Position numbers and translations under genes: made by a program. From an uncultured Mycoplasmatota bacterium (lineage in GTDB: Bacteria; Bacillota_I; Bacilli_A; RF39; UBA660): a stretch of 64,000 nucleotides of DNA. The stretch is from positions 26,302 to 90,301 of the forward strand of contig CAMUZS010000002.1 in assembly GCA_947165285.1 (NCBI GenBank), read 5' to 3'. How positions within the stretch are numbered: the first letter of the stretch is position 1; every line of letters begins with the position of its first letter. The notes below the pieces were generated by a model. The model saw nothing but the letters and a program-made list of their open reading frames with translations, did not search any database and had not been told where the DNA came from. Below, piece by piece: positions 2,097 through 37,442 of the stretch.

Positions 2097-2117
2097 AATA
2101 ATACCCCGTTTCTATTA

Positions 2118-4982: not shown

Positions 4983-4984
4983 TT

Positions 4985-10631: not shown

Positions 10632-11552
10632 ATGTTTAAGTACACTCTAGATAACAAAAGATATCATACACTTAATTATTACTATAAAAAGAAGTATGGA
10701 AAAAAAGTATTTAAAGTATCTTTAAATGCTTCCTTTTCATGTCCAAACAAAATAAATGGTAAAGGGTGTATTTTTTGTTCAAAACTAGGTAGTGGAGATT
10801 TTGCTGGAAATAAAGATAAAGATTTAAAAACACAATTTGAAGAAGTAAAAAATATAATGTTAAAAAAATGGAATGATGCATACTTTATAGGATATTTTCA
10901 AGCTAATACAAATACATACGCACCAGTTGAAGTATTAAAAGAAAAATATGAAAGTATATTAAGATTAGATAACGTAATTGGATTATCTATTGCTACAAGA
11001 AGTGATTGTATTAATGAAGAATGTTTAAATTATTTAGTAGAATTAAATAAAAAAACAGATCTTACAATAGAACTTGGACTTCAATCTATGCATGAAAGCA
11101 CTCTAAAATATATTAATCGAGGACACGATTTAAGTAATTTTGATAATTGTGTAAAAAAATTAAAAGAAAACAATATAAAAGTAGTAGTTCATATTATTAA
11201 TGGACTACCAAATGAAACAAAAGATATGATGTTAAAAACAGTTAAACATTTAAACAAATTACATATAGATGGAATTAAAATACATATGCTACATGTAATA
11301 AAAAATACAGAATTAGCTGATATTTATTTAAAAAATCCATTCCATATATTAACTAAAGATGAATATATTGATATAGTTATTTCTCAATTAGAATTATTAG
11401 ATCCTAAAATAGTTATACATAGAATTACTGGAGATCCAGTTAAAGAAGATTTAATAGAACCAAAATGGTTATTAAAAAAGTTCTGTGTTTTAAACGATAT
11501 AGACAAAGAAATGGTAAGAAGAAATTCTTACCAAGGAAAATTACTAGATTAA
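10632..11552 (+). CDS. Radical SAM protein, TIGR01212 (YhcC-like) family
   Basis: An N-terminal SFSCPN...GKGCIFCS cluster like E. coli YhcC (GGCTFC). A TIM-barrel radical SAM core of about 300 aa. Confidence 0.75.
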   Translation: MFKYTLDNKRYHTLNYYYKKKYGKKVFKVSLNASFSCPNKINGKGCIFCSKLGSGDFAGNKDKDLKTQFEEVKNIMLKKWNDAYFIGYFQANTNTYAPVEVLKEKYESILRLDNVIGLSIATRSDCINEECLNYLVELNKKTDLTIELGLQSMHESTLKYINRGHDLSNFDNCVKKLKENNIKVVVHIINGLPNETKDMMLKTVKHLNKLHIDGIKIHMLHVIKNTELADIYLKNPFHILTKDEYIDIVISQLELLDPKIVIHRITGDPVKEDLIEPKWLLKKFCVLNDIDKEMVRRNSYQGKLLD

Positions 11553-14437: not shown

Positions 14438-14453
14438 AAATCATAACTCCTTT

Positions 14454-16175
14454 TTATTTTTGACTAATATTATCCTTATTTAATAAAAATCTTCGCAATT
14501 TTAATAAATTAGCAGAGTTCACATCATCACCATTCATTATTTTTGCAGATTCCATAAATGCTCCAGACAAATTATCCTTACCAATTAAATATCTTCTCAT
14601 TTTCAAAAGATCAGCAGAATTTATTTGACCATCTCCAGTTAAATCACCATAAACTACAACAGTATAAGATGTACCATTAGCAAATGTAATAGTTTGTCCT
14701 GTCTTAATTAAACCATCACCATTTATTTGAATAGATGAATCTTTAGATTTTATTTCATCTATACTAGCACCTATTTCAAAACCTCTAATAAATCCTTCTT
14801 TTATAGAACCACCTATATTACTTACAGCTGAAGATATTTCTGAAGATGAAGAATTGTTTTCACTACTTCCATTATAAGTATATGTTGCACATATTGTACA
14901 TAGACCACCACTTGCATAAACTAGTCCAGCTTTAACAGGATTTTCTGCAGACGATGATGCACCTATATTATAAAAATTAAATAATCCTGAATAAGTAGTT
15001 CCCTTATATTCAAATTGTTGTCCTGTTGTATTAAACTCACCTATTTCTTGAACAGATAAAGATGCTAGATAAACAGGATTAACATTTGCATTTTTTCCTG
15101 CTTCTAAAAATATTGAAGAATAAGATTGATTATCAATAAAATCCATTCCACTTATATAACTTTTTCTATTCAATACCCCTTGAATAACACTTTCAGGTAT
15201 ATCAATATATGACAAATTTTCAAACATAAATACATAAGATTCATTTAAAAAATTTCTTGGATCTAAATAATAAGCAGTTGTTGCTTGATTAGGTTTATAC
15301 CATCCCTTTTCACCAGTTCCAATTGCATTTCCTTCACTACATTCAACTAAAGCACAATCAGTACTTTGAATTGCACCAGTTTCTTTAAATACAGCTGAAG
15401 CTTCTTCGATAGTAAGACCTGTTTTCATCGGAGTAAATGTCCAATTATCATGTTCTTGATGTAACTGTCTTAGATATGGTTTATAACTATCTGGAAAATC
15501 CTTAATCATATTTTCAAATGCATCATCTGTTTTATCAGTAGTTCCTAAGTTTGCTTTCTTTCCTCTTGGATGAGCATATTCACCTGCCATATTTTCATAC
15601 ACAGGAATTGAAAAACTAAAAGGTAAATTAAATGATCCATTTTTATAATAAGAAGTAGATGAAGATACAGCCTCAGTAGATGGTGCAGTAATATTAGATT
15701 GATATAAATGAGAATAAATAGAATAATGTCCATTTGGATTAACATTAAATTTTTTTAAATAAGAAGTAAATTGACCTTTTGCAATATATCCATTAGCTAT
15801 CCATTTAGCTCCACCAACGATTGCCTTTTTAGGAGTATTCCATGGTCTATCATATGGATTATCTAAAGATTGAGTTGTTATATATTTAGAACAAATATAT
15901 CCCTCTTTTGAATTATAACTTACCTTTAACCAACCATCATCACAACCTTCACCAGAAACTTTTTTATCATCAATAACAGTTACTTTAGTATTAGTATTTA
16001 AAGTATCTAAAATATCACTATTTTTAGTACTAGGATTTTGTCTAAATCTAACTCCATCAGTAGAAACTCTTGCTTCATATGATGCAGCCTTAACATTAAT
16101 TGGTACAACAAATAAAGAACAGAAAGTTAGAGAAATAATCATAATAATAGTAAATGCTTTTTTTATCTTAACCAT
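14454..16175 (-). CDS. Secreted SH3b-domain protein with central putative GH73-like glycosidase region and C-terminal type-I dockerin
   Basis: Signal peptide, then an SH3b-like segment (YEARVSTDGVRFRQNPS...GWLKVSYNSKEGYICSKYI). The C-terminus has two dockerin Ca-binding repeats (DLTGDGQINSADLLKMRRYLIG; NGDDVNSANLLKLRRFLLNK). The central region weakly resembles N-acetylglucosaminidase (LASLSVQEIG...GLFNFYNIGA). Confidence 0.55.
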   Translation of the reverse strand: MVKIKKAFTIIMIISLTFCSLFVVPINVKAASYEARVSTDGVRFRQNPSTKNSDILDTLNTNTKVTVIDDKKVSGEGCDDGWLKVSYNSKEGYICSKYITTQSLDNPYDRPWNTPKKAIVGGAKWIANGYIAKGQFTSYLKKFNVNPNGHYSIYSHLYQSNITAPSTEAVSSSTSYYKNGSFNLPFSFSIPVYENMAGEYAHPRGKKANLGTTDKTDDAFENMIKDFPDSYKPYLRQLHQEHDNWTFTPMKTGLTIEEASAVFKETGAIQSTDCALVECSEGNAIGTGEKGWYKPNQATTAYYLDPRNFLNESYVFMFENLSYIDIPESVIQGVLNRKSYISGMDFIDNQSYSSIFLEAGKNANVNPVYLASLSVQEIGEFNTTGQQFEYKGTTYSGLFNFYNIGASSSAENPVKAGLVYASGGLCTICATYTYNGSSENNSSSSEISSAVSNIGGSIKEGFIRGFEIGASIDEIKSKDSSIQINGDGLIKTGQTITFANGTSYTVVVYGDLTGDGQINSADLLKMRRYLIGKDNLSGAFMESAKIMNGDDVNSANLLKLRRFLLNKDNISQK

Positions 16176-16326: not shown

Positions 16327-18363
16327 ATGATAATGAAAGCATTTGTACATAAATTAAAGAAATCAAATAAAGTATTTTTATCACTTTATTTAATATCCTT
16401 AATAACATATATTGTTTTTTATAGTATTTTTACAATAAATATACTTCATTTAAGCAATATTGAAACAGGAATTAGAATAGTATTACTAGTATTTTTTGGA
16501 CTATGGTTATTAATGTGGTTTATAACTGGATTAGTATTCTTATTTACTAAAAAATATAAAAAAATGATTATTTTAATAGTATTTACACTAATTTTTTCTG
16601 GAATATTTGGAGTAAGTAGTTATTATATAAATAAAATATATCAAACAGTAGATGGTATGAGTAAAGACAAAGTTGTATATACATCAAATTTAATAACATT
16701 AAAAGATTCTAATTTTGACAGTAATAGTAAAATAGGAATGATTAATGATTCTAATGACGTTGAAGGTTTTGTATTAGGAAATAAATTAATTAAGAATAAT
16801 TCATTAACTAATGAAATAAATAGATATGATGACTACTTAATAATGCTTAATGATTTATATACTAAAAAAATTGATGCTGCTGTTGTATCAGGAAATTATA
16901 TTATAAACTTTTCATCTGAAGAACAATTTGAAAATATAGAAAAAGAAACTAAAATAGTTTATACACTATCTGAAGAAATGAAAAATCAAGATAATGTATC
17001 GTATACAAACAAAAAATTAACTGAACCATTTACAGTACTTTTAATGGGTGTTGATTCAGAAAATGATGGACTTAATGCTAATCAAGCATTTAATGGAGAT
17101 ACATTAATGTTAATTACTTTTAATCCTAAAACATTAACAGCTAGTGTGTTCTCAATTCCAAGAGATACATTTGTTCCAATAGCATGTAGAAACGGAGCAT
17201 ATGCAAAAATAAATTCCGCAGCTGCATCTGGTACAAATTGTGTAATTAATACAATTAAAAATCTTACTGATATAGATATAGATTTTTATGTTAAGATTAA
17301 TTTCAAAGGTGTTGTAGATTTAGTTAATACAATAGGTGGAATTACAGTAGATGTAGAAAAGCCTTACTTTAGATATAATAATGGTATAGATTATCATGGA
17401 CAAGTTTGTGAACAAAATTCAAATCGTGATTTTGGTAACAGTACTGTTTGTATAGATCCAGGAGTACAAAGATTAAACGGTGAACAAGCTTTAGCTTATT
17501 CAAGAAATAGACATCAATATATTGGATCAGATTTAGATAGAGTAAAACATCAACAACAAGTAATAACAGCCTTAGCAAATGAAGTTAAAAATCTTTCATC
17601 ATTTGAACAATTTGAAGGAATTTTAAATGCAGTTGAAAAAAATATGGATACTAATATGAAAAATGAACAAATATTATCACTATATAATGTTGCTAAAAAA
17701 ATAGCATTAACTGCATTAAGTGGAAAAACAGATGAAATAGTTTCAATTAATCATACATATTTAGAAACTTATTCTCTTCCTGTATGGATAGGATATTCTA
17801 GAACATCCGCTTTAGGATATTATAAAGATTCATTAAATGATATAGTTAAAATGATGAAAATTAATCTTGAATTAGAAGAAGAAAAAATAACTAAAAATTA
17901 TGAAATTGATTATAATGAAAACTATGAATCAAAATATTATGGAGAAAAAATTAGATCAAATCAAGTACAAATACTAATGCCTAATTTAATAGGAAAATCT
18001 AAAGAAGAAGCAAGTAATTGGATTACTTCACAAGGAAAAACACCATCAATTAAATATGTTTCCCCTGGTGAAGCTCATTACAATTCTAGTGTAGGAAGTG
18101 GAGTTGTAGCTGATCAAGATATTCATATAGATTCATTAATAAATAATGTAGGAACTATAACAATCTATGTTAATGAAGGAAAAACAAATGTTATATCAGA
18201 AACAATAATAAATAATACAAACACTAATCAAGAAGATAAAAAAGAAGAAACTACTAGTAACGAAGTTCAAAAACAAGAAACTAAGACAGAAGAAAAAAAG
18301 GAAGAACAAAATAAAGAAACTGAAAATAAAGAATCTGAAAGCAAAGAAGATAATAAAGAATAA
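16327..18363 (+). CDS. LytR-CpsA-Psr (LCP) family glycopolymer-peptidoglycan ligase with N-terminal TM helices, a PASTA-like C-terminal module and acidic tail
   Basis: LCP core: LLMGVDSENDG...GDTLMLITFNP...SIPRDTFVPIA...AKINSAAASG. The later segment VQILMPNLIGKSKEEASNWITSQGKTPSIKYVSPGE...GVVADQD...GTITIYV fits the PASTA pattern. The tail is E/K-rich low complexity. Confidence 0.75.
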   Translation: MIMKAFVHKLKKSNKVFLSLYLISLITYIVFYSIFTINILHLSNIETGIRIVLLVFFGLWLLMWFITGLVFLFTKKYKKMIILIVFTLIFSGIFGVSSYYINKIYQTVDGMSKDKVVYTSNLITLKDSNFDSNSKIGMINDSNDVEGFVLGNKLIKNNSLTNEINRYDDYLIMLNDLYTKKIDAAVVSGNYIINFSSEEQFENIEKETKIVYTLSEEMKNQDNVSYTNKKLTEPFTVLLMGVDSENDGLNANQAFNGDTLMLITFNPKTLTASVFSIPRDTFVPIACRNGAYAKINSAAASGTNCVINTIKNLTDIDIDFYVKINFKGVVDLVNTIGGITVDVEKPYFRYNNGIDYHGQVCEQNSNRDFGNSTVCIDPGVQRLNGEQALAYSRNRHQYIGSDLDRVKHQQQVITALANEVKNLSSFEQFEGILNAVEKNMDTNMKNEQILSLYNVAKKIALTALSGKTDEIVSINHTYLETYSLPVWIGYSRTSALGYYKDSLNDIVKMMKINLELEEEKITKNYEIDYNENYESKYYGEKIRSNQVQILMPNLIGKSKEEASNWITSQGKTPSIKYVSPGEAHYNSSVGSGVVADQDIHIDSLINNVGTITIYVNEGKTNVISETIINNTNTNQEDKKEETTSNEVQKQETKTEEKKEEQNKETENKESESKEDNKE

Positions 18364-18365
18364 AA

Positions 18366-18395
18366 AAATATCACTTTTAAGTGATATTTTTATTT
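18366..18395. terminator. Bidirectional rho-independent terminator between the convergent LCP gene and PFOR
   Basis: Hairpin atatcac-ttttaa-gtgatat (18368-18387) flanked by A-runs on one side and T-runs on the other. Confidence 0.6.
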
Positions 18396-21300
18396 ATCTG
18401 CAATACTTTTATATTCATCATATCTCTTCTTAGCATATTTAATATTTAATGACAATAATTCTTTAGCTAATTCTGGATTTTTTGTAACCAACGACTTATA
18501 TCTTATTTCATTCATTAAGAAATCCTTATACTTTGAAAAATCTGGTTCTCTAGAATCTATATATAATTTTTCATCAATAGGATTATATCTCATTAAAGTT
18601 ACATAGCCACATTCAACAGCTAATTTTTGTTCATTTGTCGATTCACACATTCCACCTTTTATACCTTGTTCAATACATGGAGAATAACATATAACTATAC
18701 TAGGTCCATTATGTTCTTCAGCTTCTTTAAACGTTTTAATTGTTTGAATAAAATTAGCACCAAGAGATACCATACCAACATAACAATTTGGATAATTCAT
18801 AGCAATTTTAAACAAATCTTTCTTAGGTGTTTTTTTACCTAAATTAGCAAATTCTGCTACTTGACCAAAGTGAGATGATTTAGACATTTGACCACCAGTA
18901 TTTGAATATACTTCAGTATCTAAAACAATAATATTAACATTTTCATTTGAAGACAATATATGATCTATTCCACCAAATCCAATATCATATGCCCAACCAT
19001 CTCCTCCAATAATAAAGACTGATCTAGAAGGCATATAATTTATTAGATCTTTCAATTCTTTTGGAATTTTTTTATTTTCTAATTCTTTTTTTACTTGATT
19101 TGTTATTTCATAATCATTAATATTATTTAAATACTTTTCATATAGTTTTTTTACATTTTTATCAACGCTATCAATAGAATTATTAATAATATTAATTATT
19201 CTTTCCCTCATTTTATTATATGATATTTTCATTCCATAACCAAATTCTGCATTATCTTCAAATAATGAATTAGCCCAAGGTATACTATATGGAGTAGAAG
19301 GAATAGAACCACCATATATTGAAGAACATCCAGTTGCATTAGCAATAACCATCTTATCTTGAAATAATTGAGTTAATAATTTTATATATGGAGTTTCTCC
19401 ACATCCAGCACATGCACCACTAAATTCAAATTTTGGTTTTTCTAATTGACTTCCTTTAATACTATATTTATCTAATAATTTAGGATTATCATAATTATTA
19501 AACATATCATTAACATAATCCTTATTACTTAAATCAATTTGACCAAAAGATAAAGCTTTTTTATTCTTCTTGCCAGGACAAATATTAATACATAATCCAC
19601 AACTTAAACAATCTTCTTCACTAACTAATACCTGATAATTATATTCATTATTACCTAACAACATAATCGAATTATCAGTTCCTTTTTCAACAATAAAAGG
19701 CCTAATAGCAGCATGAGGACATACAATTGAACACATACCACATTCTATACAATTATCTTTATCCCATTTAACAACACTATTTTGAACTGCTCTTTTATCG
19801 TTTTTAGAAAGATTATTTAAAAATTTACCATTTTTATGTTCCAATAAATCACTTACTTTTAAGTCATATCCTTTACGATGTTTAATCATATTATAAAGTC
19901 CATTAATCTCTTCTTTATTTGTATTAGTCATTGGAATATCACTATTTAACATTTTAATAGAATCTAATGAAGATTTAATAGCATTAATATTAGAATTAAT
20001 TATATCAATTCCCTTATTCTTAAATTGATTTTTAATGTTTTCAGATAATGTATTATAAGCATCATTATATTCCAATAGTTTTAAAATAATGATTTCTATT
20101 ATTTTACTTATTTTTCCTTTTATATTATTTTCATTAGCTATTTTATCAGCATCAATTAATAACACTCTTAATTTTTTTTCATTTATTATTTTTTTTACTT
20201 CATCTGGTAAAAAATTAATTAATTCATTTGAAGACTTATTAGTATTAATTAAAACTGTAGCATTCTCTTTTAAATTATCAAATAAATCAAAAGTATTAAC
20301 GTAATTATCTTTTGTTATTACTAATAAATTAGGACTAGTTACATAAAATGGATAATTAATACTATTTTCAGATATTCTTAAATGTGAAATAGTTACTCCA
20401 CCAGATTTTTTACTATCATATTCAAAATAACCCTGGACAAAATTACTAGTATTATAACCTAATATTTTCATTATATCTTTAGAGGCGCTAACCATACCGT
20501 CACTTCCAAAGCCATAAATCAATACCTCTTTTAAATCTAAAGAAAAATTATAATCTATTTTATCTATACTTAAATTTGTAACATCATCATTAATACCTAT
20601 AGTAAAATTATTTTTTAAATTTGTTTCCAACATATTATAAACCGCTAATATATCATTTGGAGTAGTATTTTTTGAAGATAATCCATATCTTCCACCGACA
20701 ATATTAATATTTGAATCTTTTAAAGCAGCTAAGACATCTAAGTATAATGGTTCTCCAATACTACCAGCTTCTTTAGTTCTATCTAATACTGCAATAGAAT
20801 TAACACTACTAGGAATAACATCTAATAAATGTCTTTGACTAAATGGTCTATATAAATGAACTTCAACTAATCCATATTTTTTTCCATCATTATTTAATTT
20901 ATCAATTACTAATTTAATTGTGTCACAAACACTACCCATAGCAACAATTACATGCTTAGCATCCTCTGCTCCATAATAATTAAATGGCTTATAATTAGTA
21001 CCCATCATATCATTAATTTTATTCATATAATTACATACAGTTTCAATAGTATTTTCATAATCTTTATTTCTAGCTTCAACACTTTGAAAATAAATGTCCT
21101 CATTTTCTGCTAAACCCATTTGAAAATTAGATGAAACATTTAATGATTCATTTTTAAAACTATTAATAGCATCAAAATCAACTATTTTTAATAACTCATT
21201 TTCATCAATAGATTCTATTGTATTTATTTCATGAGATGTTCTAAAACCATCAAAAAAATGCAAAAAAGGAACTCTAGATTTAATTGCGCTTAAATGAGCT

Positions 21301-21758
21301 ACTGCAGCTAAATTTTGGGCATCAAAAACATTAGTTGAAGCAAGCATTGCAAACCCAGTTTGTCTTGTAGCATAAATATCACTGTGATCACCAAAAATAG
21401 ATAAAGCATGAGTAGCTATAGTACGTGATGCAACATGAATTACACCAGGAAGACCCTCACCAGCCATTTTATACATATTTGGTATCATTAATAAAAGTCC
21501 TTGTGAAGCAGTAAATGTTGTAGCTAATGATCCACTAATCAAAGCACCATGCATTGCACCTGCAGCCCCTGCTTCACTTTGCATCTCAACTAAAGAAACT
21601 TTTTCATTAAATATGTTTTTCTTTTCATTAACATTTGATAATTTATCAATTTCACTAGCCATTGGAGATGAAGGTGTAATTGGATATATTGAAGCTATTT
21701 CACTAAAAAGATATGCTATATCAGCACAAGCAGTATTACCATCAACTATTTTTTTCAT
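18390..21758 (-). CDS. nifJ: Pyruvate:ferredoxin (flavodoxin) oxidoreductase
   Basis: 1122 aa. N-terminal pyruvate-Fd OR domain; two 4Fe-4S ferredoxin motifs (CIECGMCSIVCPHAAIRP; CLSCGLCINICPG); TPP-binding region GGDGWAYDIGFGG. Confidence 0.95.
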   Translation of the reverse strand: MKKIVDGNTACADIAYLFSEIASIYPITPSSPMASEIDKLSNVNEKKNIFNEKVSLVEMQSEAGAAGAMHGALISGSLATTFTASQGLLLMIPNMYKMAGEGLPGVIHVASRTIATHALSIFGDHSDIYATRQTGFAMLASTNVFDAQNLAAVAHLSAIKSRVPFLHFFDGFRTSHEINTIESIDENELLKIVDFDAINSFKNESLNVSSNFQMGLAENEDIYFQSVEARNKDYENTIETVCNYMNKINDMMGTNYKPFNYYGAEDAKHVIVAMGSVCDTIKLVIDKLNNDGKKYGLVEVHLYRPFSQRHLLDVIPSSVNSIAVLDRTKEAGSIGEPLYLDVLAALKDSNINIVGGRYGLSSKNTTPNDILAVYNMLETNLKNNFTIGINDDVTNLSIDKIDYNFSLDLKEVLIYGFGSDGMVSASKDIMKILGYNTSNFVQGYFEYDSKKSGGVTISHLRISENSINYPFYVTSPNLLVITKDNYVNTFDLFDNLKENATVLINTNKSSNELINFLPDEVKKIINEKKLRVLLIDADKIANENNIKGKISKIIEIIILKLLEYNDAYNTLSENIKNQFKNKGIDIINSNINAIKSSLDSIKMLNSDIPMTNTNKEEINGLYNMIKHRKGYDLKVSDLLEHKNGKFLNNLSKNDKRAVQNSVVKWDKDNCIECGMCSIVCPHAAIRPFIVEKGTDNSIMLLGNNEYNYQVLVSEEDCLSCGLCINICPGKKNKKALSFGQIDLSNKDYVNDMFNNYDNPKLLDKYSIKGSQLEKPKFEFSGACAGCGETPYIKLLTQLFQDKMVIANATGCSSIYGGSIPSTPYSIPWANSLFEDNAEFGYGMKISYNKMRERIINIINNSIDSVDKNVKKLYEKYLNNINDYEITNQVKKELENKKIPKELKDLINYMPSRSVFIIGGDGWAYDIGFGGIDHILSSNENVNIIVLDTEVYSNTGGQMSKSSHFGQVAEFANLGKKTPKKDLFKIAMNYPNCYVGMVSLGANFIQTIKTFKEAEEHNGPSIVICYSPCIEQGIKGGMCESTNEQKLAVECGYVTLMRYNPIDEKLYIDSREPDFSKYKDFLMNEIRYKSLVTKNPELAKELLSLNIKYAKKRYDEYKSIADK

Positions 21759-21819
21759 TTATACTCACACTCTCTTATTACAATTATATATCTTTTCATA
21801 AAAAATAAAAAGTAACTTT

Positions 21820-22971
21820 TTACTTTTTATTTTTTTTCTTCTTCCTATTTTTAGATTTTTCATTCATTATCTCATGTTGTTTTTTAACTAATTCTTTTTG
21901 CTCTAATTCTTCCTTTATAATTGTACTTTTATGTTTAAATAAAATGTCTGTTTTCATTACAATTAATAGTAAAAATATCATTAATATTACATATATTATT
22001 ATAGCTTGTTTTTGATCACCTATTGCAAAAAATACAGAAACAGCACTAAATAAAATAGTAATAAAATATATTATTAAAATAGTATTTTTTTGAGAAAATT
22101 TCATTTTTAAAAATTGATGATGTAAATGTTCTTTATCAGGATTTGTAAATGGATTTTGATGTTTTAATAATCTTCGAATAATCGCAGATGCTGTATCAAA
22201 TATAGGTATGGCCAAAATTGAAATAGGTACAACAATTGATGTTAATGTAGTAGCTTTGTAACCTAATAAACCAATTACACTAATAATAAATCCTAAAAAA
22301 TAACTACCTGTGTCTCCCAAAAATATTGATGCAGGTGGAAAGTTATGTACTAAAAATCCTAACGTTGCTCCAGCCATAATTAATGATAATATAACATCAA
22401 GGCCACCTCTTTGATTTAATATAAAAGCAATAATTGCAATAGTAATAAAATATATTGAAGATATACCTGAAGCCAATCCATCAAGGCCATCAATTAAATT
22501 TATTACATTCATTACAGCAACAATAAATAATATAGTTATTATCTGACTCCAAGGAGCACTAAAGTATAAATTTAAACCAAATATAGTAATCTCATTTAAC
22601 ATTAAATTACCATATATACATACAGTAGCTGCAGCAATAACTTGAACTAAAAACTTATATTTTGCCTTTACTGGATTAATATCATCAATAATACCACATA
22701 AAACTATTAAAAAACTTCCGATAAGCACTGAAAGCATCATCGTAGACTCTCTTGCATAAAGCATATAACCTAACATAAATGATAAAAATATTGCAAGGCC
22801 ACCTAATCTAGCAATTGGCTTTTTATGTATTTTTCTTTCATTAGGCATATCAATGGCGTTAATATGAATAGCCACTTTTCTTATAATTGGTGTAATAATG
22901 ATACTAGTTAAAAACGTAACCAATAATACAACATATATATTATGACCATTTACTGTTATATCCATAAACAT
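21820..22971 (-). CDS. Polyprenyl-phosphate N-acetylhexosamine-1-phosphate transferase (TagO/WecA/MraY family) with Lys-rich C-terminal tail
   Basis: Multi-TM protein with PNERKIHKKPIARLGGLAIFLSF and other MraY/WecA-like loops. The C-terminus ends ...NEKSKNRKKKKNKK. Confidence 0.8.
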   Translation of the reverse strand: MFMDITVNGHNIYVVLLVTFLTSIIITPIIRKVAIHINAIDMPNERKIHKKPIARLGGLAIFLSFMLGYMLYARESTMMLSVLIGSFLIVLCGIIDDINPVKAKYKFLVQVIAAATVCIYGNLMLNEITIFGLNLYFSAPWSQIITILFIVAVMNVINLIDGLDGLASGISSIYFITIAIIAFILNQRGGLDVILSLIMAGATLGFLVHNFPPASIFLGDTGSYFLGFIISVIGLLGYKATTLTSIVVPISILAIPIFDTASAIIRRLLKHQNPFTNPDKEHLHHQFLKMKFSQKNTILIIYFITILFSAVSVFFAIGDQKQAIIIYVILMIFLLLIVMKTDILFKHKSTIIKEELEQKELVKKQHEIMNEKSKNRKKKKNKK

Positions 22972-23003
22972 ACTCCATTCTTTAATTATTATACATTAAA
23001 TAA

Positions 23004-24725
23004 TTATTTTTTTAAACTATTTATTTTTTTATAAAATTTATTATTCTTAAGTAAATTATTATGATCTCCATCTCCTATTATTTTACCTTTTTTTAAAATA
23101 ATAATTCTATCACTATTTTTTATACATTCTATATCATGAGTAATCATAATTATTGTATACTTTCCTTTTAATTTATCAATTAATTCATTAATTGATTTAA
23201 TAGCATCTCTATCTAAATTATTAGTTATCTCATCAAAAAGTAATATTTTGGCATTTGTTAATAATACTCTTGCAATCGCTAATCGCTGTTTTTCACCACC
23301 ACTAAAATTAGTTGCATCATCATTTAAGATAGAATCATACTTTTTTTCTAAACTATTTATTTTTTTATCTAAACCAACAATTTTACATACTCTTTTAATA
23401 TTTCCAAAATTGTTATCAATTAATTCTAAATTCTCTTTTATTGATAAATTAAATAAAAATGGTTGTTGAGTAACTAATGCTATATTATTTCTTATACTTT
23501 CTTCATCAAGTTCATTAATATCATAATTATCAAGAAAAATTTTTCCACTATTTAAAGAATACATTTTAGTTATTAAAGAAAATAATGTAGATTTACCTGA
23601 TCCATTATCACCTATTATTGTATTAAAAGAATTCTTATTTATTATTAAATTAAAATTACTTATTATTTCATTATTATTATCATATGAAAAACTTACATTC
23701 TTAAACTCAATATTACCTTCTAGTTTCCCAATTTTTTTCTTACCAAAAGATTCCCTATCATAATCTAATATAGAAATAATTCTATTAAATGATAAATCAA
23801 ATTGGCCAAAATTATTAACTAATGTAGATAATCTTGTAGTAAAATTAAACACTTTTCCTCTATTCATTAAAATAAGTATAAAAGTCGAAGTTGTAAGTAA
23901 TTCATTTTTAATTAACAACATAGATAATAATATCATACCACCTAAAAATATAGATTCTAAAAAGTTAGTTATTTTAGAATAGTAATCTAAATAATAATTA
24001 CTTTTATATTCAAGTTCACTAATATTTTCAAAAGAATCATTAGTCTTTTCTTTAAAATTATCTTTTAAATTAAGTGTTTTTATATCCTTAACACCTCTAT
24101 ATATTTGACTTAACAAATTAGAATTATCATCTAATTTTTTTAAATTAATATTTTTATAATACAAACTTTTCTTTATTCCATAATATCTTATTAAAAAAGT
24201 AATAACACAACATATAAAAAAATATAGACCAATAATAGGATTTAAAAAAAGTATAACTATTAATGTACCAAAACTAGAAAAAATAGATAAAAAACTATCT
24301 TTTATTACCGTAAAATAATTAGATATTCTAGATGTATCAGATTGTATCTTATTTAAAAAATTACCCTGACCATAAATATGAAATACATTAATACTTAAAT
24401 TAAGTGTTATGTTACAAACATATTTTCGTATATTAAGCACCATTTTTTTTCTAAGCTTTAAAAATATCTTTGTAGATAATAAATTACATATTACATTTAC
24501 TACCTTTACTAATGCAGATATTATAAGAAATACAATTACTAAATTAAATTCTTTATTTAGAATATTGTTTATCATAATACCACTTATAGTTGGTAAAAAT
24601 ACAGATAAAATAGTAGCAATAAAAGACAATATTAAAAAAATTATAATTTCTTTTTTACAATTATTTAAAAAAAACTTAAATCTTTTAAAATTACTAATAT
24701 ATTTCTTCATGCTAATACCTTCCAA
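23004..24725 (-). CDS. ABC exporter, fused permease-ATPase (MsbA-type half transporter)
   Basis: Six N-terminal TM helices; Walker A IIGDNGSGKSTL; signature FSGGEKQRLAIARVLL; Walker B ILLFDEITNNLD. Confidence 0.85.
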   Translation of the reverse strand: MEGISMKKYISNFKRFKFFLNNCKKEIIIFLILSFIATILSVFLPTISGIMINNILNKEFNLVIVFLIISALVKVVNVICNLLSTKIFLKLRKKMVLNIRKYVCNITLNLSINVFHIYGQGNFLNKIQSDTSRISNYFTVIKDSFLSIFSSFGTLIVILFLNPIIGLYFFICCVITFLIRYYGIKKSLYYKNINLKKLDDNSNLLSQIYRGVKDIKTLNLKDNFKEKTNDSFENISELEYKSNYYLDYYSKITNFLESIFLGGMILLSMLLIKNELLTTSTFILILMNRGKVFNFTTRLSTLVNNFGQFDLSFNRIISILDYDRESFGKKKIGKLEGNIEFKNVSFSYDNNNEIISNFNLIINKNSFNTIIGDNGSGKSTLFSLITKMYSLNSGKIFLDNYDINELDEESIRNNIALVTQQPFLFNLSIKENLELIDNNFGNIKRVCKIVGLDKKINSLEKKYDSILNDDATNFSGGEKQRLAIARVLLTNAKILLFDEITNNLDRDAIKSINELIDKLKGKYTIIMITHDIECIKNSDRIIILKKGKIIGDGDHNNLLKNNKFYKKINSLKK

Positions 24726-24751
24726 TAAAAATATTATACTAAAAATCTAAT

Positions 24752-26353
24752 TTATTTAAAAGATTTTATATTATGAAAATACCATAGTTGAAAAATATAA
24801 TAATTCCATAATACAATTGCTCTTGAATAAACAGGATATTTTTCATAATAATTAATTAGTTTTATTAATTCATCATATTTAAATATTTTTTGTTCATCTA
24901 TATAATCTTTTTTAGTTATCTTTTTTATATCATCTAATAAAAAATCTTTCATCCATTTTTTTATTGGTATACCAAAACCATTTTTTTTATAATTATCAAA
25001 ATATTTTTTATCTATATTATTATATAAAACTTTACTAAAAATATATTTATTATCTCTATTATTATCTATTAAGTCATTATTATATTCCATAAATTTATAT
25101 AATAAATCTACATCATAAAATGGAGTATAATAATTCATTTTTAGATTTTTTAATATATGAATATTTTTGTTTTTAACTTTTTCAGAACCAATATGACCAT
25201 ACAACTCTAAATTAGATACTTCATATGAATATTTTTTATTTAACTTTATTACTTTTCCTTTATAACCCACTAAGTTATCAGAATAAGCAAAACGTCTTAT
25301 TATTGGAACTTGTAAACGTTCACTATAATTTTTAGGAATTCTTATTTTATGAGTATATTTATATAATAATTCTTTATAATATTTAATATTATTAAAACTA
25401 TTATTTATCTTAAATAAATCAAATAATCCATCTACACCTTCACCTGCTAAATAAAAATCATTTTTTTCTTTAATATTTTCCATCATGTAAATACTTGGAA
25501 TAATTGATGGATCTGCAAAAGGTTCATCATAAATTAATGGAATCTTATTAATTATTTTTTTTACATCTTTTGTTTTTAATATAATACTATGATGATTAGT
25601 TCCAATATAATTTGCTATTATTTTTGCATTTTCACTTTCATCTATTTCATCTTCGAAACCTAAAGTATAAGTATTAATTTTATTTTTATAATACTTTGAT
25701 GCAAGTAAACAAAGTAATGTTGAATCTTTACCACTACTTAAAAATATTCCTACCTTAGAATTTTTACTTCCATATTTACAAATACAATTAAATAATAAAT
25801 CTTCTAAATTATTAATATTTTGTTCTTCACTTAACTTATTCTTCTTAATATCTTTAGCTTCTTCACAAATATCAAAATATTTAATTATTTTTATATCATC
25901 ATCATATTTTAATATACTACCTTTATTTAATTTATAAGTATCTAAATAAATTGTATCACTTTCATATATATATGAATATCCTAGATAATTTGCAATAGAT
26001 TGTTTATTAATTTTTAGATTTAAACTACAATTATTTTTAATTAATGATAATTTATTAGAAAAAAACAAAATACCATCTTTATGATAATAATATAATGGTA
26101 AATTACCTAATTTATCTTTAATAATAAATAATTTATTATTATCAACAATAAAAACATTATAATTACCATCAAGATAATTAACAAAATCAAGTGATTTTTC
26201 TTTATATAATTTCTCAATATACTTAATATCACTTAACTTAGTATTATTTATGATATAACCATCAATAAAAATAAAAAGATTATCTAATTTTTGTACAACA
26301 TTATCTATTTTAATTGAAATCTTATTATTTATTATACTTCCTTCAATTTTCAT
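24752..26353 (-). CDS. Second AsnB-family amidotransferase paralogue lacking the N-terminal Cys
   Basis: PP-loop IFLSSGKDSTLLCLLAS and the AsnB-like synthetase domain. The N-terminus is MKIEGSII... with no Cys2. It overlaps the upstream GT4 gene by 11 nt. Confidence 0.7.
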   Translation of the reverse strand: MKIEGSIINNKISIKIDNVVQKLDNLFIFIDGYIINNTKLSDIKYIEKLYKEKSLDFVNYLDGNYNVFIVDNNKLFIIKDKLGNLPLYYYHKDGILFFSNKLSLIKNNCSLNLKINKQSIANYLGYSYIYESDTIYLDTYKLNKGSILKYDDDIKIIKYFDICEEAKDIKKNKLSEEQNINNLEDLLFNCICKYGSKNSKVGIFLSSGKDSTLLCLLASKYYKNKINTYTLGFEDEIDESENAKIIANYIGTNHHSIILKTKDVKKIINKIPLIYDEPFADPSIIPSIYMMENIKEKNDFYLAGEGVDGLFDLFKINNSFNNIKYYKELLYKYTHKIRIPKNYSERLQVPIIRRFAYSDNLVGYKGKVIKLNKKYSYEVSNLELYGHIGSEKVKNKNIHILKNLKMNYYTPFYDVDLLYKFMEYNNDLIDNNRDNKYIFSKVLYNNIDKKYFDNYKKNGFGIPIKKWMKDFLLDDIKKITKKDYIDEQKIFKYDELIKLINYYEKYPVYSRAIVLWNYYIFQLWYFHNIKSFK

Positions 26354-27536
26354 CTAGTACCCTTTCCCATTTTTTTAATATTTTTTCTTTACTAAAATCA
26401 CTAACTCTATTTATTGATTTCTTTTTATAATTATCATATAACTTTTTATTATTTAATAATTCTAATATTGCATCTTTTAATATTATTTCTTCCTTAGTTA
26501 ATTTATAATTAGCTTTATATTTTTTATAATCACATATTGGAACTAATACTCCATATTCTTCAAAAGAAATATTATTAACAAAATTATCATTATCTTTTCT
26601 TATAGATAAAATTTCTTTAGTTCCACCATAACTATCACTAGCAATAATTGGAAGAGAACAAGCAAGAGATTCTAACAATACATTTGGCATTCCTTCATAA
26701 AAAGAATTTAAAACAAATAATTTAGAATTATACATATACTTATATATATTTTCTTTAAAATCAAAAATAAAAACTTTATCATTTAAATTATAATCATTAA
26801 CTAATTTTTTATAATACTCTTTTAATGGTCCCCTTCCAATTAATACTAATTTTATATTGTTATCATATTTTACAATTTCATTAAAAACCCTAATTAAATG
26901 CCATTGACCTTTTTGTTCATTATATCTTCCAACAGATAATATAACATCATTTTTAAAAATATTCATTTCTTCCCTAGATAGTTTTTCTTTTTTTAATTTA
27001 TTAATATTTTCAATATCTAAATAGTTTTCTATAACGACACTATTATTTTTATCCAATTTATATCTTTTAATTTGATCTTCTTCAACACTTTTTGAAACAT
27101 TAATAACTTTATCAACTCTCTTAATATATTTTTTATATAGTTTTATAAATATTTTAAAAATTATAGATTTTGGTAAAAAATGTTTATTAATTCCCATGTA
27201 ATTTCTAGTTGAAAAATATATCTTATCACCAGCTTTGCTTAAATAATTAAATACGCAATATTTCATTATAAAACTAATAGAAATATCAATATTTAATTCT
27301 TTTTTTATTCTTTTTAATTTAGAAATTCCTTTAAACATTACTCTACTTATTCTAAGTTCTTCTATTTCAATAATATTAACATCTGGTATATAGTCGGCAT
27401 TATCTAACGTTCTAACAACTAAAGTAATGTTATATTTATTTTTTAAACTATTGCATAAATTATATATTACTTTTTCAGCTCCACCTGATGTCATATTTCC
27501 AATTAAAAACAATATATTTTTCTTCATGAGAATCAC
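26343..27536 (-). CDS. Glycosyltransferase family 4
   Basis: IGNMTSGGAEKVIYNL N-terminal motif and EGMPNVLLESLACSLPIIAS C-terminal motif. Confidence 0.8.
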   Translation of the reverse strand: MILMKKNILFLIGNMTSGGAEKVIYNLCNSLKNKYNITLVVRTLDNADYIPDVNIIEIEELRISRVMFKGISKLKRIKKELNIDISISFIMKYCVFNYLSKAGDKIYFSTRNYMGINKHFLPKSIIFKIFIKLYKKYIKRVDKVINVSKSVEEDQIKRYKLDKNNSVVIENYLDIENINKLKKEKLSREEMNIFKNDVILSVGRYNEQKGQWHLIRVFNEIVKYDNNIKLVLIGRGPLKEYYKKLVNDYNLNDKVFIFDFKENIYKYMYNSKLFVLNSFYEGMPNVLLESLACSLPIIASDSYGGTKEILSIRKDNDNFVNNISFEEYGVLVPICDYKKYKANYKLTKEEIILKDAILELLNNKKLYDNYKKKSINRVSDFSKEKILKKWERVLDEN

Positions 27537-27550
27537 CTTATCTAATTATA

Positions 27551-28516
27551 CTATTTCTTTTCAATTACTTTATATAATGTTGAACAATTACAACTCTTTG
27601 CATTACAAATAAATTTCTTTGTAATCTTACAAATATTATCATTTAAAATATTACCTAATTTTGTATTTATATTTTCATTACATCTATAAACATCTCCAAT
27701 ATTACTAATTGCTATAGAATTTATTCCAGCATCACAAATAAAACCAGAAGGATTAAAATTATGGGTCTTATTTATAGACATTGAAAATATATTTGTTTTA
27801 GAAAAATAATGTGCTTTACCATCTTTAGTTACTACCATAATTCTATTACTAGGATTTTTATTTAACTCATTTTTTACTTTATCACTTATACTTTTTTTAT
27901 AATTTCTTATAGGTACAAATTCAACTTTAAAGTTTTTAGAATACTTGTTTTTAAAATCCAAATATAAATCATAATCAATATCTTCAATTAATGGTATATT
28001 AATAGTTGTTTTAATATTTTGTTTATTATTTAATATTTTAACTTTATTTATAAACTCTTTCTCATTAGTATAAGCTTTATAATAACTGCAACTAAAATTT
28101 ATTTCTCTATTTTTTAATTTTTTAAACATTTTAACAAATTGTTTTAATATCTTTTTATCCGCAGACATATTAGTTGTAATATTAAATTTAATCAATCCAT
28201 CAAATTTACAATTAATTAATTTATTCATAATATTAAATATATCTTTTAAAATTGTTACTTCACCACCAATTAAGTAAAAATGTAATATATCATATTTTGA
28301 ATTTAAATTATTTTCTATATATAAAATTATCTTATCTAATATATTATTTCTTAAATCTAATGATTCATTTTTTGAATCTTTTATATGCTGTTCTTTATTA
28401 CCTTGAATACAAAAATCACAATTATAATTACATACTCTAGTAACATTCCATCTTATAACATACGTACCCTTTTTTATAATTTTATTTTCTATTCTAACTA
28501 TATCACTATTATTCAT
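27551..28516 (-). CDS. Radical SAM enzyme with C-terminal Cys-rich (SPASM/twitch-like) region, embedded between GT4 genes
   Basis: CNYNCDFCIQG is a CxxxCxxC motif about 30 aa from the N-terminus. The C-terminal third carries seven Cys (FICDAG...YRCNEN...NICKI...FICNAKSCNCS). Its start codon shares a nucleotide with the stop of the upstream GT4 gene. Confidence 0.65.
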   Translation of the reverse strand: MNNSDIVRIENKIIKKGTYVIRWNVTRVCNYNCDFCIQGNKEQHIKDSKNESLDLRNNILDKIILYIENNLNSKYDILHFYLIGGEVTILKDIFNIMNKLINCKFDGLIKFNITTNMSADKKILKQFVKMFKKLKNREINFSCSYYKAYTNEKEFINKVKILNNKQNIKTTINIPLIEDIDYDLYLDFKNKYSKNFKVEFVPIRNYKKSISDKVKNELNKNPSNRIMVVTKDGKAHYFSKTNIFSMSINKTHNFNPSGFICDAGINSIAISNIGDVYRCNENINTKLGNILNDNICKITKKFICNAKSCNCSTLYKVIEKK

Positions 28517-29673
28517 TATATAACCTCATTTATTAGATTTAACCATTTCTTTATTATTACATTTTTACTATAATCTTTTTTTCTAATTGATGATTGTTTA
28601 ATATAATAATTTCTTTTATTGTTATCATTTAATATCATTAATATAGCCTTTGCTAATAATTGTTCTTTTAATGTAATATAATCTTTATTATGTTCATTAA
28701 TAAATGATGGAACTAAAATACCATATTTCTTCTCTTCAATATCATCTACAAACGTATTTATATTTTCATCATCAATTATTTCTATTGAACCACCATATGA
28801 AGACGTTGATATTATTGGTAAATCACAATTTATGGCCTCAATTAAAACATTAGGAAAACCTTCATAATCAGATGCTAAAACCATACACTTAGCATATTTA
28901 AAAAACTTAAAAGGATTTTTATAATATGACATTAAAAATACATTATTCTTTAAATTATATTTATCTATTAAATCATTTAAGTAATCTTTTTGATTTCCCC
29001 TACCAAATATTAATAGTTTTGCATCACTTTTTTCTTTAACTACAATACTCATTGATTTAATAATATGTTCATGTCCTTTATGTTCAACAAGTCTTGCCAT
29101 ATCAATTATCATATTATTGCTGATATATTTTTTTTCGTTTTCTTCTATTTTTTCTTTAATACATTTATTTATTAATGCATCATCACAAAAGTTTTCAATG
29201 ACAACTGTTTTCTTCTTTTTAGAATGATATTTTTTTATTTGATCATCATAAACACTTTTTGAACAACATATAACTTTATCACAAAAAAGTAATGATATCT
29301 TATGATATATATATAAAATAAATTTTTCTTTTTTAGCAGATAAATGATTTCGAACAGATATAAAAACCTTATCCTTACACTTAGACAATATATTATAATA
29401 ATTATATAATGTAGTATAACTTATTGTAACATCTATATTATTTTCTTTTTTTATCTTTTTTAACTTTTTTATAGCCTTTAATCTTTTATGTTTTGAATTA
29501 AATTCCAATATTTCAATAGTTTTTACATTACAATCATAATCGAATGAACACTTATCAGCACATACTAAAATAACATTATGATATTTCATAAGTTCATTTG
29601 CTAAATTAATAATAGATCTTTCAGCACCACCATTATTTAGATTTCCAATTAATAACATAATGTTCTTTTTCAT
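28516..29673 (-). CDS. Glycosyltransferase family 4
   Basis: LIGNLNNGGAERSIINLANEL and EGFPNVLIEAINCDLPIISTS motifs. Confidence 0.8.
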   Translation of the reverse strand: MKKNIMLLIGNLNNGGAERSIINLANELMKYHNVILVCADKCSFDYDCNVKTIEILEFNSKHKRLKAIKKLKKIKKENNIDVTISYTTLYNYYNILSKCKDKVFISVRNHLSAKKEKFILYIYHKISLLFCDKVICCSKSVYDDQIKKYHSKKKKTVVIENFCDDALINKCIKEKIEENEKKYISNNMIIDMARLVEHKGHEHIIKSMSIVVKEKSDAKLLIFGRGNQKDYLNDLIDKYNLKNNVFLMSYYKNPFKFFKYAKCMVLASDYEGFPNVLIEAINCDLPIISTSSYGGSIEIIDDENINTFVDDIEEKKYGILVPSFINEHNKDYITLKEQLLAKAILMILNDNNKRNYYIKQSSIRKKDYSKNVIIKKWLNLINEVI

Positions 29674-29730
29674 AATGTTCTCCCTCTTATATTATACATG
29701 ATAAGATATTTATTTACAAAGATTATATGT

Positions 29731-29763
29731 ATTAAAAAAGTTGATAACTAAAAAGTTATCAAC
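29731..29763 (-). terminator. Rho-independent terminator after the antiporter gene
   Basis: Perfect 10-bp inverted repeat gttgataact/agttatcaac (29740-29763), followed by a U-run on the minus strand, immediately 3' of the stop at 29768. Confidence 0.65.
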
Positions 29764-30822: not shown

Positions 30823-30896
30823 GCAGGTGTGGTTCAACGGTAGAATATAACCTTGCCAAGGTTGAGACGAGGGTTCGACTCCCTTCACTTGCTCCA
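30823..30896 (+). tRNA. tRNA-Gly (anticodon GCC), CCA encoded
   Basis: 74 nt cloverleaf. Acceptor stem GCAGGTG/CACTTGC; anticodon arm TAACC-TTGCCAA-GGTTG; T-arm GAGGG-TTCGACT-CCCTT; ends in tCCA. Confidence 0.9.
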
Positions 30897-30908
30897 TTTA
30901 AAAAAATA

Positions 30909-30936
30909 GCTAATCCAATAGGGATTAGTTTTTTTA
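30909..30936. terminator. Terminator hairpin following the tRNA (also 3' of the convergent small CotF-like gene)
   Basis: gctaatcc-aata-gggattag followed by ttttttt; A-run on the other side. Confidence 0.6.
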
Positions 30937-37424: not shown

Positions 37425-37442
37425 TTATATCACATCCTAAAT

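Follow-up and report, generated by a model that had tools for sequence, protein, structure and literature searches.

We analyzed a 64,000-nucleotide stretch of contig CAMUZS010000002.1 (assembly GCA_947165285.1) from an uncultured Mycoplasmatota bacterium, hereafter the window, and in it six tightly packed minus-strand genes at 21820–29673 that encode two GT4 glycosyltransferases, a radical SAM enzyme, an AsnB-family protein, an ABC half-transporter and a TagO/WecA-type N-acetylhexosamine-1-phosphate (HexNAc-1-P) transferase. We conclude that the region is probably a surface-glycan biosynthesis operon of two layers, i.e., a core of tagO, with a LytR-CpsA-Psr (LCP) gene nearby, and an accessory five-gene cassette. 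The glycan role is well supported since no peptide precursor gene was found: between 21700 and 29800, no free open reading frame (ORF) of at least 25 amino acids occurs between the genes, every such ORF lying inside a gene.

Read in the direction of transcription, the genes are GT4a (28516–29673; PF00534 and PF13439, a GT4 of the PglJ/PglH/WbnH type), the radical SAM gene, which belongs to a small family (27551–28516; PF04055, 40.4 bits), GT4b (26343–27536; PF00534 and PF13439, a paralog of GT4a), the AsnB-family gene AsnBx (24752–26353; PF00733, 121 bits, with a partial GATase_7 match), the type-IV ABC half-transporter with transmembrane and nucleotide-binding domains (TMD-NBD; 23004–24725; PF00664 and PF00005) and tagO (21820–22971; PF00953, 132.7 bits). 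From GT4a to tagO, neighbouring genes first overlap by 1 nt, are then separated by 14 nt, overlap again by 11 nt and finally leave gaps of 26 nt and 32 nt. An earlier note on this DNA had described six packed minus-strand genes, and the ORF listing found all six intact at exactly the coordinates it gave. Its component calls (initiator, ABC exporter, AsnB-like protein, two GT4 enzymes and radical SAM enzyme) agreed with Pfam, where the products of all six genes scored above curated cut-offs. The profile searches that it had proposed as a check thus recovered the Pfam families; the glycan equivalog models of NCBIfam all stayed below their cut-offs.

Signals at both ends are consistent with joint transcription. 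Upstream of GT4a, a sigma-70-like promoter (TTGTAA-17-TATAAT, 29691–29719, minus strand) was called from its fit to the consensus alone, and sequences with this fit show no enrichment in the AT-rich DNA of this window. The ribosome-binding site AGAGGGAG lies between this promoter-like site and the GT4a ATG at 29673. Further upstream, a terminator-like minus-strand hairpin (29740–29763, a 10-bp stem followed by a T-run) ends the upstream Ca/Na-antiporter gene and shields the operon from upstream transcription; its RNA fold has −11.7 kcal/mol (z −5.22), and none of 200 shuffles equalled it. At the other end, an A/U-rich 16-bp hairpin spans the tagO stop codon (21800–21835, minus strand; −11.9 kcal/mol, z −4.06). 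As it contains almost no G-C pairs, it went unreported in the terminator scan; it is probably the end of the transcription unit before the PFOR gene, which has a −10-like element of its own in front. The six genes therefore probably form one transcription unit bracketed by the promoter-like site and the two hairpins. Rfam reported nothing but a tRNA-Gly in the whole window, with neither a riboswitch nor a leader ahead of the operon. A plus-strand ORF of 113 amino acids (24409–24750) lies wholly within the ABC gene and is an antisense shadow ORF, typical because the DNA is AT-rich, and not a gene.

The grouping exceeds chance, as linkage among orthologs of four of the six is seen in many independent genomes. 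Gene orders of related loci were taken from fetched loci and a blastp panel. Orthologs of GT4a, GT4b, ABC and AsnBx are 43–55% identical and keep their neighbourhood; those of GT4a, GT4b and ABC co-occur with AsnBx and/or the radical SAM gene in L001, L006, L008, L010, L011, L013, L038 and L039. The order is unknown 394-aa protein – radical SAM – GT4a – GT4b – ABC in L001; Wzy_C – DUF6020 – radical SAM – GT4a – GHMP kinase – GT4 – ABC – GT4x – AsnBx2 in L006; Wzy_C – radical SAM – GT4a – GT4b – GHMP kinase – nucleotidyltransferase – AsnBx – GT4 – ABC – GT4x in L008; and Wzy_C – radical SAM – GT4a – AsnBx2 – AsnBx – GT4b in both L010 and L013. L038 has Wzy_C – GT4a – GT4b – AsnBx – GT4 – ABC – GT4x – AsnBx2 without a radical SAM gene, and L004 has AsnB-like – three GT4 – beta-helix protein – radical SAM – UDP-glucose dehydrogenase – epimerase – second radical SAM – Wzy_C – FkbH – MBOAT. 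Of about 15 distinct close loci, at least 12 contain Wzy_C, mostly immediately upstream of the radical SAM gene and often overlapping it.

Scanning species-representative genomes yielded 24 further loci, every one of them from a gut or rumen metagenome-assembled genome (MAG); they represent Bacilli, Clostridia, Lachnospiraceae, Coriobacteriia, Bacteroidales and one Planctomycete. The radical SAM family recurs in glycan loci across phyla (Bacilli, Clostridia, Coriobacteriia, Bacteroidales), and more distant loci place it next to GT2, GT4 and MBOAT genes and, in repeated cases, next to genes for right-handed beta-helix proteins (Pel9A/chondroitinase-B type). Glycan genes around the related cassettes, varying from locus to locus, comprise Wzy_C, GT4, GT2, UDP-glucose dehydrogenase (TuaD-like in L004), epimerase, GHMP kinase (GalK-like) with nucleotidyltransferase, MBOAT and beta-helix lyase-like genes. 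The glycan assembly line proposed in the earlier note hence gains from comparison, with the association of GT4, ABC, AsnB-like and radical SAM genes kept in other genomes within glycan-gene loci. Its remark that radical SAM chemistry plus sugar amidation is uncommon in such a locus was likewise borne out at gene level, the combination of radical SAM and AsnB-like genes being rare in our homolog searches. Literature searches on radical SAM enzymes with glycan, O-antigen ligase or undecaprenyl found no such cassette described.

Relatives also show where the core ends and the cassette begins. The tagO product matches PF00953 over profile positions 2–158 of 160 (cut-off 27 bits) and the WecA model TIGR02380 with 161.8 bits against a cut-off of 326; MraY models score lower (75–99 bits). 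It has about ten hydrophobic 19-residue windows in a simple Kyte-Doolittle scan, i.e., it is a polytopic membrane protein. Homologs at 75–89% identity are numerous, and NCBI or JGI name some homologs at 73–84% identity GlcNAc-1-P transferase. Next to tagO lies PFOR (18390–21758, minus strand), followed by an LCP gene with a PASTA tail (16327–18363, plus strand; PF03816 144.8 bits, cut-off 24.6, and PF03793 29.2 bits), as the earlier note had described it. In four contigs of relatives, L034–L037, PFOR is again next after tagO, which is 79–84% identical there, with an LCP-PASTA ortholog not far from tagO in L034 (71% identity) and in L036 (64%). Each of the four contigs has different DNA upstream of tagO, and none carries the five cassette genes. 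As they keep the backbone without the cassette, tagO-PFOR-LCP is a conserved backbone and 23004–29673 an accessory cassette placed directly upstream of tagO; by gene content, the locus is a composite of a core tagO and the accessory five-gene cassette. The six-gene unit of the earlier note accordingly stands as an operon-like arrangement but is not uniform, with tagO being core, the five others accessory and the system reaching as far as 3411–7144.

The LCP product also matches TIGR00350 (126 bits, cut-off 62), with the LytR and TagU equivalogs below cut-offs, and is a candidate glycopolymer-peptidoglycan ligase and putative final transferase. The gene order of the backbone, with LCP-PASTA on the opposite strand, is conserved between the window (16327–22971), L034 (10001–16491) and L036 (1157–12227), and PFOR, a gene of central metabolism, separates those for the enzymes that begin and complete wall-glycopolymer attachment. 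A megablast search of PFOR against plasmids gave no match. Relatives carry SpoVA, SpoIIP, sortase and FemAB genes, from which we take the organism to be a spore-forming, very low-GC (23.6%) Gram-positive.

The GC content of the cassette is 17–21%, compared with about 25% for tagO. GC at third codon positions (GC3) is 6–13% in every window gene, hence the difference reflects amino-acid composition, and composition is unusable for detecting islands in this genome. Recent horizontal acquisition, suggested by low GC, was unsupported given the uniform GC3, and no flanking direct repeats were found around the cassette.

GT4a and GT4b match PF00534 with 103–105 bits and PF13439 with 46–54 bits. The best NCBIfam models for GT4a are PglJ (120 bits, cut-off 500) and PglH (93 bits, cut-off 600), that for GT4b is PglJ (150 bits, cut-off 500), and all are below cut-off. 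The best PDB sequence match of GT4a is WlaC (6eji), an older name of PglH. Orthologs are found at 50–52% identity in L006, L008 and L038 for GT4a and at 51–52% in L001, L008 and L038 for GT4b. With 41% amino-acid identity to each other, the two look like a tandem duplication now split by the radical SAM gene; the order in relatives is radical SAM – GT4a – GT4b. A 136-nt direct DNA repeat of 71% identity (26979–27114 and 29146–29281) reflects this paralogy.

The half-transporter carries PF00664 (82.5 bits, residues 27–288) and PF00005 (101.7 bits, residues 356–502) in one polypeptide; its true start may be an ATG 15 nt downstream of the TTG. Orthologs of 43–55% identity occur in L001, L006, L008, L020, L038 and L039. 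Its scores on glycolipid-flippase equivalogs fall below cut-offs (MsbA TIGR02203, 264 bits versus 602; PglK NF050066, 135 versus 1000), peptide-exporter models score it similarly, and its PDB matches are generic (ABCB, TM288, HlyB, MsbA). The Pfam scan found no C39 peptidase domain on it. Gene listings of the related cassette loci contain no Wzx-type flippase family, which makes the ABC protein the flippase candidate. That an ABC protein can flip lipid-linked oligosaccharide is established for PglK (PMC5395944), and by this analogy the ABC protein is a candidate for flipping or exporting a lipid-linked glycan.

AsnBx has a close clade of about 20 relatives at 42–49% identity, with none above about 50%. 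Beyond this clade the score falls from 368 to about 200 bits, reaching ordinary AsnB-type proteins of about 620 amino acids. Every member of the clade starts M-x-I/V, and all are without the MCG start, whereas nearly all of about 100 more distant homologs start with MCG and have SGGxDS near residue 268. AsnBx itself starts MKIEGS in an ORF that is maximal, leaving no room for an upstream extension. Aligned with the canonical AsnB of the window (35604–37424), the clade lacks the first ~52 residues, including Cys1, HRGPD and RRLxIxD. The NGEIYN oxyanion motif is degenerate (xxGxIxN) with loss of Asn74, but the rest of the N-domain and the entire synthetase domain are retained. The PP-loop SSGKDS is intact in AsnBx (residues 206–211) and lies near residue 215 in the clade, with SSGEDS or SGGKDS in three members. 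As read from these alignments, the glutaminase domain of AsnBx, and likewise that of the related AsnBx2 described below, is truncated and inactive, and glutamine cannot be the nitrogen donor. The earlier note had recorded an AsnB-like protein without the glutamine-hydrolysing Cys; the Cys is indeed lost, but the loss is wider, covering ~52 N-terminal residues and the oxyanion motif. Its label amidotransferase is hence a misnomer for a protein whose glutaminase half is cut short by these residues.

Whole-protein models leave both proteins below cut-offs. AsnBx scored 158.8 bits on TIGR01536 (cut-off 267) and 149.9 bits on TIGR03108 (cut-off 817), and the best NCBIfam model for AsnBx2 is again TIGR03108 (WbpS-type), with 200 bits. 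The AlphaFold2 (AF2) model of AsnBx (pLDDT 87.4) has the two-domain AsnB fold, for which Foldseek ranked TsnB9, beta-lactam synthetase, AsnB and CarA about equally; E values for the glutaminase-less homologs are 1e-16 to 1e-18, and CarA is also the second-best PDB sequence match. The TIGR03108 members WbpS, WbqG and PGN_1234 are needed for conversion of glycan uronic acid to uronamide (PMC7468200). By analogy, AsnBx and AsnBx2 may activate a sugar carboxylate by adenylation, from which it would go to free ammonia or another amine. Members of the AsnBx family all come from gut or rumen habitats. Ammonia is plentiful in these habitats. Uronic-acid supply or lyase-fold genes lie in several related loci, with which a uronic-acid polymer would fit.

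A second module at 3411–7144 belongs to the same system. It consists of a 719-aa GT4-GT4 fusion (4985–7144, minus strand; two GT4 units, best NCBIfam models PglH and PglJ) and AsnBx2 (3411–4982, minus strand), the second truncated AsnB-like gene, which is likewise glutaminase-less and 34% identical to AsnBx. The C-terminal half of the fusion is 35–37% identical over its full length to GT4x of L006, L008, L038 and L039, which in contiguous cassettes elsewhere is located between ABC and AsnBx2. In L010 and L013, the orthologs of AsnBx2 and AsnBx are direct neighbours, and in L038 and L039 they share one cassette. Because the fusion C-half and AsnBx2 match genes of these contiguous cassettes, the genome of the window carries a split version of them. 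Downstream of AsnBx2, at 560–3356 (minus strand), are three very low-GC ORFs: one of 372 aa with an N-terminal transmembrane segment, a 146-aa bacterial PH-domain protein and one of 412 aa with a C-terminal transmembrane segment. No Pfam family covers two of these ORFs, and the fetched loci contain homologs of none of them.

The radical SAM enzyme contains the cluster motif CNYNCDFC (CX3CX2C) and GGE, and its PF04055 score is above cut-off. Its C-terminal Cys set reads CX12GX4C...CX4CXC. Invariant in the family are CNYxCxFC, GGE, C261-X12-G274-X4-C279, C309 and C311, with C304 nearly so. The CX3CX2C motif begins at residue 29, and as only 28 residues precede the cluster loop, the enzyme has no N-terminal peptide-recognition domain. 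From this motif pattern, the five C-terminal Cys suffice for one auxiliary cluster and a spare Cys and are not a canonical seven-Cys SPASM set of the form CX9-15GX4C...CX2CX5CX3C...C. PF04055 is the sole Pfam match at E ≤ 0.01, with no SPASM family among the matches, and the twitch model NF033640 gave 38 bits against a cut-off of 170; the first half-motif CX9-15GX4C is present, and the predicted fold resembles twitch/SPASM enzymes. The SPASM label of the earlier note could hence not be kept, the five conserved Cys being at best a twitch-like remnant.

The family is small and sharply bounded. A word-indexed search of 5.8 billion proteins found only 45 relatives, none above about 50% identity. 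When 1.84 billion representatives were searched with a full profile, 62 matched at E<1e-30, of which about 40 are full-length with more than 300 bits; below that, the score falls sharply to about 130 bits. Against the PDB, the sequence matched only compositional noise (I-MsoI). In structural comparison, the AF2 model (pLDDT 90.8) had no clear winner (SkfB 15.2, BlsE 15.1), with ChlB, MoaA, EpeE, anSME, SuiB, viperin, PqqE, BtrN, AbmM and DesII as further neighbours. The enzyme looks like an optional tailoring enzyme, as the L038 cassette is without it and other loci have two copies. Such paralogs within one glycan locus lie at 13317–14423 in L004 and 17283–18335 in L013, and in L011 the radical SAM gene is followed by one for an arylsulfotransferase-like protein with BspA-type leucine-rich repeats.

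Three other assignments of the radical SAM enzyme were discarded. An anSME-type maturase for the nearby sulfatase-domain protein was rejected because that protein is LtaS-like with five transmembrane segments, because the seven-Cys SPASM motif is missing and because of the linkage to GT4 and Wzy_C in other genomes. A glycyl-radical activase linked to PFOR was based on the name of one distant fragment only, and the PFOR adjacency belongs to the backbone that occurs without the cassette. Membership in the STM4011 family was indicated by 53 bits against a cut-off of 200, over the C-terminus only, and a literature match for it dealt with a Salmonella regulator.

We infer the substrates, step order, amide chemistry, radical reaction and final acceptor of this system as follows. 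TagO would make the undecaprenyl-PP-HexNAc primer and, with the LCP enzyme, be part of the wall-glycopolymer machinery of the lineage. The accessory cassette, i.e., GT4a, the radical SAM enzyme, GT4b, AsnBx and ABC, would be read with tagO from one promoter. GT4a and GT4b would extend the lipid-linked primer on the cytoplasmic face, and the fusion encoded at 4985–7144 may add sugars. AsnBx and AsnBx2 would adenylate carboxyls of the glycan or of nucleotide-sugar precursors, most likely uronic acids, converting them to amides with free ammonia or another amine as donor, since they cannot hydrolyse glutamine. The radical SAM enzyme might contribute an optional oxygen-independent tailoring of a sugar (epimerisation, dehydrogenation, decarboxylation or dehydration). 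ABC would then flip the finished lipid-linked glycan outward, like PglK in Campylobacter, for the LCP enzyme to transfer it to peptidoglycan; in other genomes a Wzy_C enzyme would transfer or polymerise it. No initiating phosphoglycosyl transferase is found in the gene listings of the related cassettes, which suggests that initiation there comes from a housekeeping enzyme such as TagO. Initiation of many O-antigen clusters by wecA is a precedent.

Several observations weigh against this proposal. Only in this genome does tagO adjoin the cassette, so their proximity may be fortuitous, and a promoter-like site lies just upstream of tagO (22988–23016). The LCP gene is on the other strand, beyond PFOR, and is linked to tagO and not to the cassette. 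As all glycan-specific equivalog models fall short of their cut-offs, donor and acceptor specificities are not fixed, and ABC is no nearer to PglK than to drug or peptide exporters. The structural neighbours of the radical SAM enzyme are evenly split between sugar or nucleotide enzymes and peptide maturases. Finally, UDP-glucose dehydrogenase, GalK-like kinase, Wzy_C and beta-helix genes are all absent from the 64-kb window (for Wzy_C and beta-helix homologs also with purpose-built hidden Markov models), and with no uronic-acid supply gene there, the carboxylate substrate is undocumented in this genome.

The frequency of Wzy_C beside the radical SAM gene in close loci raises the question of destination. 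Wzy_C (PF04932) covers O-antigen ligases, polymerases and PglL-type O-oligosaccharyltransferases. The same assembly line could thus deliver its glycan to a surface or S-layer protein or a lipid anchor, or have it polymerised, through a Wzy_C-family enzyme encoded elsewhere, in a pgl/PglL-like or O-antigen-like manner. A surface-protein glycan had also been named in the earlier note as the alternative to a wall polymer. The GT4 enzymes being nearest to PglJ and PglH, the PglK architecture of ABC and the nearby surface proteins with SH3, dockerin and cadherin-like domains would agree with such a destination. We nevertheless consider it unlikely, as the window has no Wzy_C homolog and an LCP ligase is conserved near tagO.

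The fortuitous adjacency of tagO can be taken further, with the cassette using another primer or acceptor (a glycolipid, or a soluble or protein acceptor in the cytoplasm) and tagO serving an unrelated wall polymer. The tagO-PFOR pair kept without the cassette in L034–L037, the absence of tagO next to any related cassette, the GC content and promoter-like site of tagO, and the weaker GT4 matches BshA, SdgA/B and GtfA, which act on soluble or protein acceptors, all favour separation. However, both parts lie on the same strand, 32 nt apart, with no terminator between ABC and tagO. The best GT4 matches (PglJ, PglH, WbnH) act on undecaprenyl-PP-linked acceptors, and the membrane exporter together with the Wzy_C of relatives implies a lipid-linked intermediate that needs an initiator somewhere. 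That tagO is a mere neighbour is therefore quite unlikely.

A glycosylated ribosomal peptide, with the radical SAM enzyme as maturase, the AsnB-like protein as lasso or lactam cyclase, ABC as exporter and the GT4 enzymes decorating the product, is very improbable: SkfB, ChlB, EpeE, SuiB and PqqE are indeed among the top structural neighbours, glutaminase-less AsnB-like enzymes include lasso cyclases (weak NF033535 match, 55 bits versus a cut-off of 525) and ABC scores comparably on bacteriocin and NHLP exporter models, but the intergenic small ORF, the peptide-recognition domain and the C39 domain are all missing, and the related loci are dense in nucleotide-sugar, Wzy_C, GT2, MBOAT and lyase-like genes. 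A cluster for a peptide made on the ribosome and modified after translation (RiPP) was rejected on these grounds.

For the surface-glycan operon that we prefer, one may go a step further and regard the radical SAM enzyme as the first radical enzyme dedicated to cell-envelope glycan tailoring in gut anaerobes, which together with the glutaminase-less AsnB clade, itself new, would give an amide-rich wall polymer of new structure, specific to gut and rumen Firmicutes. We find this possible, if doubtful. The enzyme might, for example, abstract H-5 from a uronic acid for an oxygen-independent C5-epimerisation or decarboxylation, with the fifth Cys as hydrogen donor, and the glutaminase-less AsnB enzymes would neutralise uronic acids with ambient gut ammonia or an amine.

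Other parts of the window hold further surface and radical SAM genes. The canonical AsnB (MCGITGF..., full GATase_6/7) is the third AsnB-family gene in the 64 kb. It lies 18 nt downstream of the LtaS-like protein gene (five transmembrane segments and a sulfatase domain) in a minus-strand block at 35604–39635 and may serve in the amidation of peptidoglycan or teichoic acid instead of housekeeping asparagine synthesis. At 13172–16175 (minus strand), a 573-aa protein with SH3_3 and a type-I dockerin adjoins a 421-aa protein with cadherin-like domains; both are conserved in L036 at 52–56% identity, and the dockerin hints at cohesin-dockerin surface assemblies in this lineage. A second radical SAM gene at 10632–11552 (plus strand, 306 aa, Radical_SAM and Radical_SAM_C) is unrelated, belongs to another type and shows no connection with the glycan genes. 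Between the antiporter gene and the minus-strand block that comes next, the 30823–30930 region holds the tRNA-Gly(GCC) on the plus strand and, after it, a hairpin scored as a terminator for either strand.

Almost nothing is known about the surface glycans of uncultured Firmicutes from gut and rumen, which shape phage sensitivity, immune recognition and colonisation. The layout described here is ordinary for a variable surface-glycan locus; its interest lies in two small, unassigned enzyme clades. The recurring cassette delimits both cleanly and at a tractable size, i.e., the truncated AsnB clade and the radical SAM family, with about 40 clusters at 50% identity that are tied to glycan loci across several phyla. 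Assigning either clade would extend bacterial glycan biosynthesis by a new reaction and would improve the annotation of many MAGs, in which these genes now appear as 'radical SAM protein' and 'asparagine synthase'. Should the chemistry prove plain, for instance an ammonia-dependent uronamide and a known type of sugar oxidation, the locus is a routine variable glycan locus.

Of the known systems, the C. jejuni pgl locus shares GT4 enzymes, here with PglJ and PglH/WlaC as best curated and PDB matches, a TMD-NBD half-transporter instead of Wzx, and a compact co-directional operon. In contrast to pgl, the initiator is of the TagO/WecA type (PF00953) and not PglC, there are no PglB oligosaccharyltransferase or bacillosamine genes, and Pgl equivalogs score 120–154 bits against 500–600 (PglK 135 against 1000); the locus adds AsnB-like and radical SAM genes that pgl is without. 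With the WecA/TagO-initiated, LCP-attached wall glycopolymers of Firmicutes (teichoic and teichuronic acids, secondary cell-wall polysaccharides), it shares a TagO-type initiator and an LCP gene within 6 kb, together also in relatives, a weak TuaC similarity of the GT4 enzymes and, in the related L004, a TuaD-like dehydrogenase. It differs from them in having no TagGH-type ABC transporter, its exporter being of MsbA/PglK architecture; the window contains no TagA/B/F, glycerol- or ribitol-phosphate or CsaB genes, and the cassette is accessory and not core.

For the two enzyme clades, the closest parallels are single enzymes. Among curated families, that of WbpS, WbqG and PGN_1234 (TIGR03108, eps_aminotran_1) comes closest to AsnBx2 and is almost the closest to AsnBx. 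It shares with them the AsnB synthetase domain with its PP-loop and the embedding in glycan loci, but scores are far below the cut-off and AsnBx and AsnBx2 lack the N-terminal part with the Cys nucleophile. Beta-lactam synthetase, the carbapenam synthetase CarA and lasso cyclases resemble the AsnBx model in their two-domain AsnB fold with a dead N-domain and an active adenylating domain; their N-domain is of full length, and the amides that they form are intramolecular ones of secondary metabolites or peptides, whereas AsnBx has a shortened N-domain and a glycan context. The radical SAM enzyme, in turn, has no detectable sequence similarity to solved structures, has five auxiliary Cys and not seven, and scores equally well with peptide maturases. 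With the twitch/SPASM enzymes that act on sugars or nucleotides (the cytosylglucuronate decarboxylase BlsE, the dehydrogenase BtrN, MoaA, DesII and AbmM), it shares the partial TIM barrel, CX3CX2C, GGE and the CX12GX4C beta-hairpin, as well as, to judge from its genomic context, probably a carbohydrate substrate.

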